From a virus, in UHGV virus genome UHGV-0207529: 39,545 bases of DNA. One strand, written 5' to 3'. Position 1 is the first letter of the stretch. Each line of letters begins with the position of its first letter. The notes below the pieces were generated by a model that saw nothing but the letters and a program-made list of their open reading frames with translations, had not been told where the DNA came from and did no database searches. The translations under genes and the position numbers were made by a program. Of this stretch, positions 1-39,545 are shown in pieces.

Positions 1-36
1 ATACATAGCTGCGGCTATCAAGATGGAGGTATGTTT

Positions 37-480
37 ATGCTCACTTGTTTTGATGTCGCCGACTACTTCTTGGCGCATTGCGATGAAGAAAGTGGCGACA
101 TTATCTCTAACCTAAAAATTCAGAAGTTGACGTATTATGCCCAAGGGTTTTCTCTGGTTCTTCTGGGTAAACCGCTATTTAATGAGAAAATTGAAGCCTG
201 GATGCATGGGCCAGTAGTTCCTGAATTGTATCGTAAATATAGGGACTGTGGTAACGGAGCTTTACCTGCGCCAGAAAACTTTGACGCTAAAAAATTCAGT
301 GAAGATGAAATTGAATTGCTGGATGAGGTGTATAAAGTTTATGGTCAGTTTTCTGCCTGGAAACTGCGCAATATGACTCACGAAGAGCAGCCATGGAAAG
401 ATGCTTACATTGAGGGTGCGGTTAGCCAAGAAATCACACTTGATTCTATGAAAGGTTTTTTCAAAACGTTAATTAACTGA
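37..480 (+). CDS. Panacea-domain (DUF4065, SocA/GepA-like) putative antitoxin
   Basis: Translation has the motif pattern I recall for DUF4065 (LKIQKLTYYAQGFSLVLLGKPLFNEKIEAWMHGPVVPELYRKY). GGAGG lies 8 nt before the ATG at 37 (third codon of the track ORF 31..480). Confidence 0.6.
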   Translation: MLTCFDVADYFLAHCDEESGDIISNLKIQKLTYYAQGFSLVLLGKPLFNEKIEAWMHGPVVPELYRKYRDCGNGALPAPENFDAKKFSEDEIELLDEVYKVYGQFSAWKLRNMTHEEQPWKDAYIEGAVSQEITLDSMKGFFKTLIN

Positions 481-485
481 CGTGT

Positions 486-908
486 ATGTCTAGAGTTAAG
501 GGAAGAATAAAACAGAGGGATAAAGAGAGCTCTGCTACTGTTGGCCTCTCTATCCATCACGAATCTCATGATGTAGACAAAAGTCCGCCTGTATTTTCTC
601 TTAGATACCTACAAAAGGGGTATTGCCTAGATTGCTGCCAAAAGCATGAAAAGGCAGCATTTGCAGATAGGCTGTTCAGGTTAAGTCAGATGTCATGGGA
701 TGAGATACGAAAATCTGATAAACACGGGCTTGGGACGGAAAAAATTGCCAGAAACGCGATAAAGGCTCCGATTCCTAAGCATGTTACTCAAGATGTGGAT
801 TTCATTGCGTTCAGATTTTGCTCTAAGGCACCTATGGTTGGTTATAAGATAGGAGCCACTTTTTATGTCTTATGGCTCGACAGGGAGTTCAAGCTATACA
901 AGCACTAA
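486..908 (+). CDS. Hypothetical 140-aa protein, candidate toxin/effector partner of the Panacea-domain gene
   Basis: Starts 5 nt after the upstream stop and shares its terminator; no family recognised. C-terminal R-x6-H (DREFKLYKH) is only a weak HEPN-like hint. Confidence 0.45.
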   Translation: MSRVKGRIKQRDKESSATVGLSIHHESHDVDKSPPVFSLRYLQKGYCLDCCQKHEKAAFADRLFRLSQMSWDEIRKSDKHGLGTEKIARNAIKAPIPKHVTQDVDFIAFRFCSKAPMVGYKIGATFYVLWLDREFKLYKH

Positions 909-951: not shown

Positions 952-1155
952 TTAACCAAATCGATCCTTAAAGCGCCTATCGCTGTTGCGTCTCTCCATT
1001 TTACTGTTGCAGTACGGACAAAGATGCTGTTTCTTTCCATCGATAGTCCATGTGAAGTACTTTTTCTTAAATCCAGCACCACAGATATCGCAACTTCTTG
1101 GTTTAAACATACTGGCTATGAAGATAAGAACAACAAATCCTATGATCCATTCCAT
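952..1155 (-). CDS. Small membrane-anchored zinc-ribbon protein (hypothetical)
   Basis: 67-aa ORF with a hydrophobic N-terminal segment and CxxC...CxxC cysteines. Confidence 0.4.
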   Translation of the reverse strand: MEWIIGFVVLIFIASMFKPRSCDICGAGFKKKYFTWTIDGKKQHLCPYCNSKMERRNSDRRFKDRFG

Positions 1156-1482: not shown

Positions 1483-1666
1483 GGTGGGATGCTAGGTCTC
1501 TATCGTTAAAATCAAGGCTGCTAATCATTTCATTGTAAATGGCGTTTTTATCTTCCATTGGCAGTCTTGAGTAAACCAGACACAGAGCATATTTCAGGGA
1601 GTTTAGCTCTTTCTCTAGCTCTTCCTTGCTTGACGTTTTTGACTTAATAAACTGTTTTTTATTCAT
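1457..1666 (-). CDS. Hypothetical protein co-transcribed downstream of mnt
   Basis: 69-aa ORF whose start overlaps the mnt stop (translational coupling). Confidence 0.4.
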   Translation of the reverse strand: MNKKQFIKSKTSSKEELEKELNSLKYALCLVYSRLPMEDKNAIYNEMISSLDFNDRDLASHLNSFRVPE

Positions 1667-1911
1667 TTTGCATCCTTACCATACATGGTCTTTAGCGTCT
1701 CAAGCAGCGCCTCTTTGAATTTGTCAGCTTCTTGCTGAGCAAATGACTCAACTGACTTTGGCGACCTATCTTCATCAATCGCGGCTTGCAAAATCATGAC
1801 GATCTCGGAGTTAACAGAGCGACCATTTTTTGATGCTCTGACAGCAAGAGCCTCGCGTAAAGATTCAGGGATTCTTACCGTAGTTGGAGAAATTGACACA
1901 CCCTTTGCCAT
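1663..1911 (-). CDS. mnt: Mnt-like ribbon-helix-helix repressor (immI)
   Basis: 82 aa; same length class and RHH pattern as P22 Mnt as I recall it (NGRSVNSEI...); divergent from arc. Confidence 0.8.
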   Translation of the reverse strand: MAKGVSISPTTVRIPESLREALAVRASKNGRSVNSEIVMILQAAIDEDRSPKSVESFAQQEADKFKEALLETLKTMYGKDAK

Positions 1912-2025
1912 ATCACACCTTTGGTATTCAATTTGATATCAAAGTGTATGCAAAAAAATTTTGACTAGATATACTCACTTTGCTATCTTTTGTATTCGAA
2001 AAGAGTTGTTTGTGTGGAGGGTAAC
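1912..2025. promoter_or_regulatory. immI divergent promoter/operator region between mnt and arc
   Basis: Intergenic between divergent RHH repressor genes; contains a perfect 12-bp palindrome tttgatatcaaa and a TTGACT -35-like hexamer. Confidence 0.4.
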
Positions 2026-2178
2026 ATGGAGAAAGAAATAAGTAAGATTTTGGTAAGGATGCCGCAGTCGTTAAAGGATGCTATCGGTAGCAGGGCAAAG
2101 GAAGAGTGCAGGTCGTTTAACTCAGAGGTTATCAAGCGCCTGATAGACAGCCTGAAGAGAGAGGGGGTGATGGTATGA
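2026..2178 (+). CDS. arc: Arc-like ribbon-helix-helix repressor (immI)
   Basis: 50 aa from internal ATG with GGAGGG SD; matches the P22 Arc pattern (MPQ...RSxNSE...EG). Confidence 0.8.
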   Translation: MEKEISKILVRMPQSLKDAIGSRAKEECRSFNSEVIKRLIDSLKREGVMV

Positions 2179-2378
2179 GTAAAGAATGTTGTTTCTGCGG
2201 CATTAGCGAATCAGACGCTGATCAAACATACATTTACTCTAAAGAAACAGGTCGGATGCTGTGTAGTGACTGCGTGTTGGACATCATAAGATACAAGCAT
2301 CTTGGATGTTCTGCCAGCATTAGCAATATAGGTGAAGTATACGAAGGGAAAGATATAACTGATAGAGCAGAAAGTTGA
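2175..2378 (+). CDS. Small Cys-rich (CCxC...CxxC) protein inserted between arc and ant
   Basis: 67-aa ORF overlapping the arc stop (ATGA); putative zinc-binding cysteines. Confidence 0.45.
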   Translation: MSKECCFCGISESDADQTYIYSKETGRMLCSDCVLDIIRYKHLGCSASISNIGEVYEGKDITDRAES

Positions 2379-2441
2379 AGCCCCAACTGCGGGAACAGTC
2401 AGGGCTTCGGTATCGTAAAACCACGCATAGGAATTAACGAC

Positions 2442-3365
2442 ATGAAAAGTATAGCAACAGCAGTATCTACTATCAATGTACCATTCCACGGCGCAGAGCT
2501 TTATGTTGTCAATCACAACGGCGAACCGTATACCCCAATGAAACCTATCGTTGAGGGAATGGGGCTAGACTGGAAATCTCAACATAAGAAGATTTCTCAA
2601 CGCTTCTCGAAGGGTATGGTGGAAATAACCATACCTTCTGCCGGTGGGGTGCAAGCCATGATTTGTATGGCTTTACGAAAATTGGCAGCTTGGTTGAACA
2701 GCATCAGTCCTAACAAAGTCCGCCCTGAAATCCGCGACAAGGTAATCCAGTATCAGGAAGAGTGTGACGATGTGCTATACGAGTACTGGACTAAAGGCCA
2801 TGTAGTTAACCCACGCAAAGCTAAAAAGGCGTTGCCGGGTAAAATCACCACTGAGCAGCAGAAAGCCATTAAACAACTCGTCATGAGTCGCGGTCAGTCT
2901 CTGCCAAAAGAAAAACAGGCTAAGGCGATGATCACCATGTGGTCGTCACTGAAATCTCATTTTGGGTGTTCATACAAAGAAATCAGTGAGGAGCAGTTTG
3001 CCGAAGCACTGTCACTTGCAGCTCGAGTTCCACTTGAAGGCGAGTTTATCGGCAAACAAGAGAAGAAAACCAACGAGCTTTCTGCAAAAGAAGCAAACAG
3101 CCTTGTATGGTTATGGGATTATGCCAACCGCTCACAGGCGTTATTCCGCGAACTGTATCCGGCATTAAAACAAATTCAATCGAACTATTCCGGCAGATGC
3201 TACGACTATGGTCATGAGTTCTCGTATGTTATCGGAATGGCGAGAGACGTTTTAATCAATCACACACGAGATGTTGATATCAATGAGCCAGACGGACCAA
3301 CGAATCTTTCCGCATGGATGAGACTTAAGAATAAAGAATTACCTCCTTCAGTACATAACTACTGA
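2442..3365 (+). CDS. ant: Antirepressor Ant
   Basis: 307 aa, immediately downstream of mnt/arc as in P22 immI; size matches P22 Ant (about 300 aa). Confidence 0.8.
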   Translation: MKSIATAVSTINVPFHGAELYVVNHNGEPYTPMKPIVEGMGLDWKSQHKKISQRFSKGMVEITIPSAGGVQAMICMALRKLAAWLNSISPNKVRPEIRDKVIQYQEECDDVLYEYWTKGHVVNPRKAKKALPGKITTEQQKAIKQLVMSRGQSLPKEKQAKAMITMWSSLKSHFGCSYKEISEEQFAEALSLAARVPLEGEFIGKQEKKTNELSAKEANSLVWLWDYANRSQALFRELYPALKQIQSNYSGRCYDYGHEFSYVIGMARDVLINHTRDVDINEPDGPTNLSAWMRLKNKELPPSVHNY

Positions 3366-13070: not shown

Positions 13071-13206
13071 AAAGAAGATTTCCAATAATCAGAACAAGTC
13101 GGCTCCTGTTTAGTTACGAGCGACATTGCTCTGTGTATTCACTCGTTGGAATGAATACACAGAGCAGTGTTTATTCTGTTTTTTATGCCAAAAATAAAGG
13201 CCACCA

Positions 13207-15663: not shown

Positions 15664-16524
15664 ATGAGTAATCTTGCAACCGTAACACATTTAAGGCCTT
15701 CACAACGGCCTGTGGAGCGTCGTGTGGCAGAAGTTGAAGATGGTTATACCCGTCTTGCAAATGCCCTGTATGAAGAGCTTATCGGCGCAGATTTAACGAA
15801 AAATCAGAGCAAGGTTGCCCACGCCATATGCCGTAAAACATACGGCTACGGTAAAAAGATGGATCGCATCTCTGATAGTCAGTTAGCTCAAATTACCAGG
15901 CTGCCAAGACAGAAGGCAAACAAGGCCAAGAATGAGCTTATCGCGATGAAGGTTATCCTTCGCGAAGGTCAGCAAATCGGGCCTAACAAGAACATCGAGG
16001 AATGGCAAATAGAAGGGTGTCACTACTCTGGTGATAATGTCACTGCATTGGTGACAAAAAGTGTCACCAAAACGGTGACAGCGCTGTCACCAAAACAGGG
16101 ACACACAAAAGAAACTATTACAAAAGAAAAAAGAAATAATAAAAACACTATGTCCGAAAGTGTTCGGACGGAGTGTGAAAAATCATCTGACCGTCACGAA
16201 GAAACCGACAAGGCATTCGAGGAAATATTCTGGTGTGCAGGCATGCGGAAAGCCGGGAAGAAAAACGCGGCTTCGGCATTCAGAACACAGTTCAGGGAAT
16301 GGCGTAAAACTACCAGGGGTACGGCAAGCGAGTTTGCCACGATGCTGGCAGAAGACATCGCATGCAGGAATGGTAAGCAGTTCGGATTCGACAGGTTGTT
16401 ACCATCGAGCTACCTGAACGGTCAACGCTGGAACGACGAGAAGCCAGAAACTATTCAACCACAATCCAAACCATCATCCGCAATCACCGTATCGAAAACT
16501 GGCTACGTGTTTTTCGACAGGTGA
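15664..16524 (+). CDS. Replication initiator, lambda O-like
   Basis: N-terminal O-like domain ([14 protein letters not shown]...DLTKNQSKV...[17 protein letters not shown]); contains ori iterons. Confidence 0.8.
16039..16150. repeat. Origin of replication: three about 19-bp iterons plus AT-rich tract inside the O-like gene
   Basis: Tandem tgtcac...gtgaca dyad-containing repeats (TGTCACCAAAACGGTGACA type) followed by an A/T-rich stretch. Confidence 0.6.
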
Positions 16525-39018: not shown

Positions 39019-39207
39019 TTATTTCCCTAGCACATGAAACAATGTTTGCTTTAATTCCACCCATACAATTATGACCACTATAGACAGACAAAAGAAACTG
39101 AATGCATTGGCATCACGATCGAAACCTTCTCCGGCACTAAATCCGTAAAAGGTCATAAAAAATATAAAAATTGCGCACTTTGCAACGTTTACAAATTTTT
39201 TCTTCAC
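39019..39207 (-). CDS. Small hydrophobic membrane protein (hypothetical)
   Basis: 62 aa, GTG start preceded by AAGGAGG; two hydrophobic segments; convergent with gene 16. Confidence 0.45.
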   Translation of the reverse strand: MKKKFVNVAKCAIFIFFMTFYGFSAGEGFDRDANAFSFFCLSIVVIIVWVELKQTLFHVLGK

Positions 39208-39545
39208 ACCAACCTCCTTAGTTTTGCGCAGGATACCAGATGATACTGTATTGGTGGAGTGGTGTGTGAAAACGTGTCAACGACAAACCATCCACAACTT
39301 GGACGAATGATTTAGCAAAAAGTGCTATTTTTGGTGTTTAGTGTCATAGAAAAGTGAATAGCTCACTTTTCAACATTGCATGAAACTTGCAGGAAATGTG
39401 ACATTACCTTATAGGTAACTTCGGCGAAAATGCAGTAAATGTGAAACGTAATGATTTAAACGTGTCGAGAAAGTGGTTGTAAGTTAGCCTCTGAAGGATT
39501 GATGACAGCTTTGTTATGGTATTAAATGCAACTTGACACAGTTGT
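39208..39545. promoter_or_regulatory. AT-rich intergenic control region with a 9-bp perfect palindrome and repeated motifs
   Basis: Palindrome GAAAAGTGA-ATAGC-TCACTTTTC at about 39349-39371; repeated AAATGTGA and AACGTGTC motifs; promoter-like TTGATG, 17 bp, TTAAAT. Confidence 0.4.

Follow-up and report, generated by a model that had tools for sequence, protein, structure and literature searches.

The genome of virus UHGV-0207529, which is 39,545 nucleotides long and was analysed over its whole length (hereafter the window), ends in an AT-rich stretch at 39208-39545. This stretch lies next to a small leftward gene and, if the ends of the window are joined, upstream of a gene for a Panacea-domain protein. 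An initial annotation, made from the letters alone, described it as a repeat-rich control region that would hold the promoter and operator of the Panacea gene, with a perfect 9-bp palindrome that looked like the binding site of a dimeric regulator. Which genes does this region serve, and through which sites? The answer that we favour, with moderate confidence, is that it forms part of a composite, non-coding control spacer between two divergent genes in a variable phage locus, the sieA slot, and that its distal block carries candidate host-factor sites that may modulate a PanA/PanT (PanAT) toxin-antitoxin cassette. Such an element is ordinary in kind; its one twist is the possible control of a prophage toxin-antitoxin cassette by MarA, SoxS or Rob.

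Anatomy of the spacer and its linkage to panA

The window holds the whole genome of a P22-like phage (Lederbergvirus). In the phages E212 and EC.P3, window positions 39202-39545 run directly into positions 1-935, at 99.7-100% identity, and the same end-to-end junction was found in many IMG/VR contigs and E. coli prophages. This continuity, which the initial annotation had left to be checked, places the spacer directly upstream of the Panacea gene, panA. The actual spacer comprises 368 bp (39208-39545 plus 1-30) between a leftward gene of 62 amino acids (aa) and the rightward panA, and ends on the right in a ribosome-binding site, GGAGG (25-29), followed by the panA start codon ATG (31). Its description as AT-rich and non-coding held up: the GC content of the region is 39.1% against 46.7% for the window, no open reading frame (ORF) of at least 20 aa was found in the central part of the spacer, and the region carries no annotation in phage Emek or in 85 RefSeq E. 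coli genomes.

We aligned the window, which represents allele A, with the phages Emek and phiv205-1, which represent allele B, and with 30-plus IMG/VR copies. The segments are listed below, with the identity between alleles A and B where it was calculated.

39019-39207, minus strand: gene for a hydrophobic small protein of 62 aa in the sieA position, taken from the ORF list; its translation has two hydrophobic stretches
39208-39257, minus strand: shared sieA-slot leader, with ribosome-binding site, short 5' untranslated region (5' UTR) and leftward promoter candidates; 96%
39258-39453: distal block, non-coding, left end of the cassette; 99.5% (1 difference in 196)
39454-39545, plus strand: proximal upstream region of panA, part 1, with the best sigma-70 candidate, -35 TTGATG (39499-39504), 17-bp spacer and -10 TTAAAT (39522-39527); 87.7% together with part 2
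1-30, plus strand: proximal upstream region of panA, part 2, with the 5' UTR and the ribosome-binding site
31-480, plus strand: panA, Panacea-domain (SocA-like) antitoxin gene, 149 aa; 67.6% at the nucleotide and 71% at the aa level
486-908, plus strand: presumed toxin partner (panT-like), 140 aa; 59% at the nucleotide level and 58% at the aa level to the allele-B partner
909-940: terminator segment; about 90%
910-933, no strand assigned: GC-rich hairpin AAAACCCACC-GTCA-GGTGGGTTTT with flanking A and T runs, the terminator at the right end of the cassette

Short ORFs starting with ATG inside the spacer were rejected, as they lacked a ribosome-binding site or were lost in allele B.

From about 39258 to just past the hairpin at 910-933, the cassette is a discrete unit of 1.22 kb. 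Emek, E. coli A41 and E. coli Z1323CEC0005 carry it in three contexts at 99.4-99.5% identity and share no right flank beyond it. Z1323CEC0005 has additional tail-fibre fragments precisely at the 39258 junction; this prophage (L051), considered as a context outside the P22 group, was discarded as such because it proved to be P22-like with these fragments at the junction. Our survey of 5,426 complete E. coli genomes retrieved the distal block in 85 genomes and this panA family in 82, of which 34 carried allele A and 48 allele B. The distal block lay immediately upstream of panA in 82 of the 82 genomes, and it occurred without panA in three; apart from deletion derivatives, its linkage to panA is invariable. 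Of the three genomes with the block alone, ETEC6333 and ETEC6334 share an identical truncated match. In ETEC6333 (~2170-2180), the one of the two that was examined, a deletion joins the distal block at about 39434 to about window position 1328, so that panA, panT and the terminator are gone. The proposed link between the region and the Panacea gene is therefore borne out for all but the first ~50 bp, which do not travel with panA as one cassette.

Those first ~50 bp have another affiliation, which the initial annotation missed when it assigned the whole region to the Panacea gene. The left edge of the conserved block coincides with the GTG start of the leftward gene and its ribosome-binding site (AAGGAGG at 39213-39219, minus strand), whichever gene is present, and at least three different, unrelated leftward genes occupy the sieA position across phages. 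Over its first 34 bp the leader matches the 5' end of P22 sieA and its upstream flank, adjoining the annotated P_sieA, at 97% identity, and up to about 39260 it also occurs in the cassette-free phages 611R6 and E. coli A2, where the rightward cargo is a P63C-domain gene. Because the segment 39208-39257 is common to P22 sieA and to phages with other cargo, we assign it to the leftward gene: judged by its distribution, it is a slot-specific leader with a candidate promoter of that gene, and not part of the Panacea module. The best leftward candidates were TTCACA-19-TATCAT (39270..39240) and an extended -10 element, TGgTATCCT (39238..39230), which falls within the universally shared part of the leader.

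The closest known counterpart of this leader is the upstream region of P22 sieA with its putative P_sieA. Both lie in the same slot, the interval between gene 16 and mnt, and share the GTG start, the ribosome-binding site and ~34 bp at 97% identity. Both precede a leftward gene; P22 sieA is known to be expressed in the lysogen, and the same is presumed of the 62-aa gene. In P22 little upstream DNA is needed for expression: 85 bp upstream of sieA are enough for exclusion, as are 106 bp for the sieA homologue of HS1 (PMC10883804). In contrast to P22, the leftward gene encodes a 62-aa protein rather than SieA, the homology stops at about 39240, and the sequence from 39258 onward is the PanAT cassette, which P22 lacks. 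The 62-aa protein had no match in Pfam, NCBIfam or PADLOC; the same gene is also present in the phages phiv205-1, JEP4 and UPF_BP1.

Lambdoid phages are known, from the HK97/HK022 literature, to carry morons, which are self-contained inserts consisting of promoter, gene and terminator. The cassette resembles them in being a discrete insert with sharp junctions, its own upstream region and a strong hairpin terminator at the end, in sitting between conserved phage modules, and in carrying accessory genes of the toxin-antitoxin or defence type; elsewhere the same slot holds alternative cargo. It differs from them in the unusual length of its upstream region (~320 bp), in the identity of the distal 196 bp between two deeply diverged cargo alleles, and in that its own promoter is a computed candidate. 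The hairpin equivalent to 910-933 is annotated in Emek as a rho-independent terminator and, being flanked by an A-run and a T-run, may terminate transcription in both directions.

The two parts of the cassette's upstream region have different histories. Between the alleles the synonymous sites of panA are saturated (pS 0.80), and beside this saturation the 87.7% identity of the proximal region argues for constraint on its 122 bp, as would fit a promoter, a 5' UTR and a ribosome-binding site. In the distal block, constraint alone could not account for an identity of 99.5%, which indicates recent recombination with a breakpoint near 39454. Within alleles, 17 of the 196 sites of the distal block are polymorphic, which is not lower than in panA; hence, conservation says little about the function of this block. 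Phylogenetic footprinting failed for lack of intermediate relatives, as no diverged homologue of the distal block was found in 50,697 phage records or in the 5,426 E. coli genomes, and the nearest PanA relatives outside the two alleles have at most 62% identity and unrelated upstream DNA.

Candidate regulatory sites in the distal block

Four sites within the distal block were examined.

39310-39328, minus strand: near-consensus marbox (MarA/SoxS/Rob-type candidate site), ATAGCACTTTTTGCTAAAT, with the 15-mer core GCACTTTTTGCTAAA at 39325..39311
39349-39371, no strand assigned: perfect 9-bp inverted repeat GAAAAGTGA-ATAGC-TCACTTTTC, with arms at 39349-39357 and 39363-39371
39388-39401, plus strand: direct repeat 1, TGCAGGAAATGTGA, weakly marbox-like (7.0 bits)
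39431-39444, plus strand: direct repeat 2, TGCAGTAAATGTGA

The deletion derivative ETEC6333 keeps the marbox, the palindrome and repeat 1.

The strongest match to a known regulator site is the marbox. In the window, 39310-39328 is the only perfect match to AYnGCACnnWnnRYYAAAY, which we take to be the marbox consensus and which is expected 0.03 times per window. The site also fits perfectly the published definition gcannwwntgnnaaa (PMC12052159). We built a position weight matrix (PWM) for MarA from 33 sites obtained by chromatin immunoprecipitation sequencing (ChIP-seq; PMC5684230 Table 1). With this matrix the core was the top 15-mer of 79,182 window positions (17.7 bits, against 13.1 for the next), and it would rank fifth among the 33 real sites. 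At 14 of 15 positions it agrees with the MarA sites of yeeF and ypeC, which are verified and of high affinity, and at 13 of 15 with the marRAB site (PMC5684230), and the marbox matches the mar marbox used in structural work on MarA-DNA at 17 of 21 positions (PMC8279559). It is invariant in 37 phage and viral copies. In addition, GCAGTAAATGTGAAA (39432-39446, plus strand), in direct repeat 2, matches the degenerate marbox gcannwwntgnnaaa; its 12.2 bits are about the median of the real MarA sites, and it is one of six window positions that reach at least 12 bits.

A marbox, a binding site of MarA, SoxS, Rob or RamA, activates in class I when it lies in reverse orientation with its centre at -56 to -85, and in class II when it lies in forward orientation at -36 to -55 (PMC12052159). 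The marbox of the spacer is reversed relative to rightward transcription. Its distance fits class I only with weak candidate promoters whose transcription start sites would lie at about 39376-39383, and not with the leftward or the proximal panA promoter candidates. This arrangement recalls the control region of marRAB (marO), where a class I marbox stands upstream of a promoter whose core holds a palindromic repressor operator. The two marboxes agree at 17 of 21 positions and face the same way with respect to the transcription downstream, and the palindrome lies ~20-25 bp downstream of the marbox, at the place expected for the core of a promoter activated in class I. Unlike in marO, there is no homology outside the marbox, the palindrome does not resemble MarR sites, the core promoter is a weak candidate, and no cognate repressor is encoded nearby.

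The palindrome is present exactly as first described. Perfect inverted repeats of at least 9 bp with a loop of 3-12 bp occurred in 2.1% of dinucleotide shuffles of the 368-bp spacer, and seven of them exist in the whole 39.5-kb window, which makes the palindrome moderately, but not overwhelmingly, unusual. The earlier view that it is not an intrinsic terminator agrees with our results: only three of its nine stem pairs are G-C, it is followed by AACATTGC on the plus and by TATGACAC on the minus strand, so that neither strand has a T-run after it, and it was not called by a terminator scan. Of the E. coli copies, 82 of 85 keep it intact, as do 32 of 34 IMG/VR copies found independently through a different 20-mer. 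When the palindrome pattern was searched in 2.9 million viral contigs, 32 of the 34 IMG/VR matches were this cassette and two lay in unrelated contexts; as two outside matches correspond to the chance expectation, the palindrome is not a general motif.

A41, L054 and L055 carry the only variant of the palindrome, GAAAcGTGA...TtACTTTTC, and TB354 matches at the same 94.6%. The left arm has C for A and the right arm T for C; as two separate pairs are hit, the symmetry falls to 7/9 and the changes are not compensatory. Both substitutions fall inside the arms of an otherwise near-identical block, for which the chance is about 1%, and they may reflect either selection or mutability at the palindrome. 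In A41, the sole carrier of the variant whose annotation was checked, panA and panT are annotated as intact; perfect symmetry of the palindrome is hence dispensable. A site for CRP (TGTGA-N6-TCACA) was also considered and rejected, because the palindrome, GTGA-N5-TCAC, is one base short and both AAATGTGA copies lack the right half-site.

The repeats noted in the initial annotation are real, although they do not all carry the same weight. Both AAATGTGA direct repeats are present, and they are part of a longer repeat, TGCAG[G/T]AAATGTGA, with copies 43 bp apart (39388-39401 and 39431-39444). A 14-nt repeat with one mismatch occurred in 1% of the shuffles (p = 0.01). Both copies of AACGTGTC are likewise present, as AAACGTGTC at 39270-39278 and 39458-39466, but this pair is at chance level, and its second copy is not retained in the other allele, where it reads AAACATGTC. 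The term repeat-rich therefore stands for the unusual 14-nt repeat and falls for the exact 7-9-mers, whose content did not exceed that of shuffles (p about 0.1). The palindrome arms and the direct repeats have an 8-mer in common, AAA(A/T)GTGA, a motif defined post hoc, and four of its five genome copies lie within 39350-39444 (95 bp). Its plus-oriented copies are spaced by 32, 44, 43 and 32 bp and are in phase at ~10.75 bp. The AA/TT dinucleotides recur with the same period of 10.75 bp (p = 0.011), mostly on account of the repeated motif.

Several further candidates were tried and rejected. A-tract curvature was dismissed, as the A-tract centres have no 10-11 bp periodicity (p = 0.73). Terminal inverted repeats like those of miniature inverted-repeat transposable elements (18 nt, 72% complementary) were at chance level, and the CII/C1 motif TTGC-N6-TTGC does not apply because the spacing is N7. 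Regulator motifs inspected by eye and rejected were Cra/LacI-type, Fur, IHF, DnaA box, SlyA, sigma-54, sigma-E and the Chi-like ATTGGTGG.

Promoters were sought in two ways. A stricter sigma-70 consensus scan (9/12) found no plus-strand promoter in either allele, and we therefore used a home-made PWM, which yields candidates only and which is the source of all promoter positions given here. The best candidate for panA, TTGATG-17-TTAAAT, scored 7.9 (99.85th percentile). The palindrome lies ~130 bp upstream of this candidate (39499-39527) and ~80 bp upstream of the leftward candidates. The core promoter is where operators of toxin-antitoxin systems are placed, and here the palindrome overlaps only weak promoter candidates, at 39341-39376.

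Proposed control of the PanAT cassette and alternative interpretations

From the anatomy, the linkage and the motif matches we infer the positions of promoters, the binding and any regulatory effect in the following way. The spacer would serve two divergent accessory transcription units, both presumably expressed in the lysogen. Its first module (39208-39257) would supply a leader and a promoter to whichever leftward gene fills the slot, which is sieA in P22. Modules two and three (39258-39545 plus 1-30) would form the upstream region of a self-contained 1.22-kb moron, in the order upstream region, panA, panT-like gene and terminator (910-933). The proximal ~120 bp are most likely a constitutive sigma-70 promoter, the 5' UTR and the ribosome-binding site of panA. 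The distal 196-bp block would act at the DNA level as a cluster of protein-binding sites, formed by the marbox, the palindrome 24 bp to the right of it and the two marbox-like direct repeats farther on, through which host factors may modulate PanAT expression. A regulator-binding role for the palindrome is possible, and its binder would then probably be a host factor.

In this proposal, the geometry of the marbox fits class I activation only of a weak rightward promoter with its core on the palindrome. That promoter would consist of -35 GTGTCA or TAGAAA (39341-39352) and -10 CACTTT or CAACAT (39364-39376), with the marbox centred at -58 to -65. The palindrome would thereby come to lie in a true operator position and could serve a dimeric protein other than PanA, C2, Mnt and Arc. 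The proposal can be extended to a specific circuit, which we regard as unlikely: the PanA/PanT cassette, a candidate defence cassette, would be wired into the host MarA/SoxS/Rob stress regulon, the marbox would activate the promoter on the palindrome, the palindrome would be the operator of a second dimeric regulator, and a layout like that of the mar operon would be carried on a mobile 1.22-kb moron.

A number of observations weigh against a regulatory distal block. The stricter 9/12 consensus scan rejects every rightward promoter candidate, and the one that overlaps the palindrome is a weak one (PWM 4.4-4.8, about the 98.5th percentile). Recent recombination explains the near-identity of the distal block better than constraint does. 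Some 25 regulator consensus sequences had been tried by eye before the marbox came to light. Moreover, E. coli contains very many marbox-like sequences, most of them without function, and in prophage remnants most MarA ChIP peaks are away from gene starts (PMC5684230). Natural variants point in the same direction. In HH97 (~2040-2060, corresponding to window 39299-39316) an otherwise near-identical block has five substitutions and a 2-bp insertion within 18 bp, which destroy the B-box of the marbox (TTTAGC to TCTAGA), and the A41-type sublineage lost both the symmetry of the palindrome (7/9) and the stability of its hairpin while the cassette stayed intact. [quoted passage not shown]

These points lead to the most serious alternative, a hitch-hiking spacer, which we consider doubtful but realistic. 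It confines function to the leader (39208-39257) and the proximal ~120 bp; the distal block would have been homogenised recently by recombination among P22-like prophages, and its motifs would have arisen by chance in AT-rich DNA. One difference in 196 bp, beside saturated synonymous sites, implies recent shared ancestry rather than selection, and the polymorphism of the block, the natural variants that break palindrome and marbox while the genes are kept, the shuffle-level content of exact k-mer repeats, the seven inverted repeats of at least 9 bp in the window and the general lack of function of E. coli marboxes (PMC5684230) are all as this explanation would predict. It accounts less well for the clustering of several independent oddities within ~135 bp, namely the palindrome (p = 0.02), the 14-nt repeat (p = 0.01) and a marbox that stands far above the rest of the genome and is accompanied by a second one at the median level of real sites, and for a block that is never separated from panA in 82 genomes. 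If the distal block is inert, what remains is an ordinary divergent-promoter spacer.

The model of the initial annotation, in which the palindrome is the autoregulatory operator of PanA/PanT and is bound by PanA, a PanA-PanT complex, C2, Mnt or Arc, is in our view improbable. Palindromic operators commonly mediate the autoregulation of type II toxin-antitoxin operons, and the palindrome resembles such operators in being perfect, in lacking a T-run, in standing upstream of an antitoxin-toxin pair and in travelling with the cassette. PanAs with an N-terminal helix-turn-helix (HTH) do exist, but only as a distinct subset (PMC8832971). The PanA of the window matches Pfam PF13274 (E = 2e-24, residues 30-123) with no further domain found, and its match to the NCBIfam SocA family is below the family cutoff; the Pfam search revealed a bare Panacea domain without an HTH or other DNA-binding domain. 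The panT-like protein, with weak matches to PADLOC NsnC and NCBIfam MAG6450, also yielded no DNA-binding family in Pfam, NCBIfam and PADLOC searches. We further compared PanA homologues with 35-62% identity, from Gilliamella and six more genome loci in five other genera, and one in a Pseudomonas phage. No comparable inverted repeat or GTGA..TCAC motif was found upstream of eight homologues from other genera, and none in the Pseudomonas phage, where panA follows a transposase gene after a gap of only 66 bp. Together with the distance of ~130 bp from the best panA promoter candidate and the tolerated double mutation of the arms, these results speak against PanA as the binder. The phage's own regulators fare no better: the palindrome bears no similarity to its P22-type immunity operators for C2/Cro, Mnt and Arc (the O_R operators are of the type ANTTAAG-N4-CTTNANT, and the Mnt/Arc region has TTTGATATCAAA and AGATA-N12-TATCT), and the genome contains no second copy of the palindrome with up to three mismatches. 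What survives of the original proposal is an upstream control region for the Panacea gene, and not the palindrome as the panA operator.

Finally, the spacer could act at the RNA level, as a long 5' UTR or a small RNA in which the 9-bp hairpin, possibly with alternative pairing to GCTCACTT at panA codons 3-5, governs translation or the stability of the transcript. Locally the hairpin is stable (-10.4 kcal/mol, z = -2.7), GCTCACTT does recur at the start of panA, and from the biology of P22, read-through of the late operon must cross the region on the plus strand. We nevertheless consider this very unlikely. Rfam 15 covariance models gave only chance-level matches (E >=0.9) on the contiguous E212 copy, the whole-region fold was no better than that of shuffles on either strand (z about -1), and spacer scans revealed no promoter-terminator pair framing a small RNA. 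In the A41 variant the hairpin drops to -5.1 kcal/mol without compensation.

If the composite control spacer is the correct interpretation, the exact boundaries and the control region of a mobile PanA/PanT cassette are defined, a cassette carried by about 1.5% of complete E. coli genomes and by several Lederbergvirus phages. The sieA slot would then be a plug-in site with a fixed leftward leader and exchangeable rightward cargo that brings its own upstream DNA. Control through the marbox, if real, would link drug stress, sensed by antibiotic and oxidative-stress regulators, to growth arrest or phage defence encoded by a prophage.

Surroundings of the slot and minor observations

The slot is bounded by ejection-protein gene 16 on one side and by the immI (mnt/arc/ant) region on the other. 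The phage genome also contains a C2-type immunity region, and a leftward ORF of 397 aa was taken to be the integrase. Other features of the surroundings are as follows.

Up to 39001: ejection-protein genes
About 1660-3365: Mnt/Arc/Ant immI region
685-aa ORF: occupies the position of the tailspike gene of relatives

Other phages hold different material in the same slot. P22-pbi (AF527608.1, 2534-2896, plus strand) has an unannotated ORF of 120 aa with an HExxH motif (AHECAH), which starts 30 bp from the sieA start codon, extends to t_mnt, overlaps the annotated P_sieA and had no Pfam match. The P63C-domain cargo of vB_EcoP-611R6 (~1560-1660) and E. coli A2 (~1570-1675) comes with its own upstream region, in which four copies of the quasi-palindrome ATGCAAGCAT/ATGCTTGCAT surround a TATAAT box. 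Nothing in the PanAT spacer resembles an operator array as closely as this set does.

In phiv205-1 the PanA homologue matches in two tblastn pieces that are annotated as two short ORFs, and its panA is probably frameshifted. Just right of the cassette terminator lies an ORF of 67 aa (952-1155, minus strand) with a weak zinc-ribbon match; because it is absent from Emek at that position, it is not linked to the cassette. An 8-bp palindrome, TGTATACA, straddles the window junction (39543-39545 plus 1-5), where the initial annotation had no view of it. It sits between a perfect TTGACA (39533-39538) and the ribosome-binding site of panA, and is not kept in allele B, which reads TGGATACT.

The strongest inverted repeat of the genome is found at 13127-13166. 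Its perfect 15-bp arms, TGCTCTGTGTATTCA-N10-TGAATACACAGAGCA, are followed by a T-rich tract, and it may be a terminator in the early-left region. Another perfect 9-bp inverted repeat, TTGGTGACA-AAAAG-TGTCACCAA at 16048-16070, lies inside an ORF of 286 aa (15664-16524).

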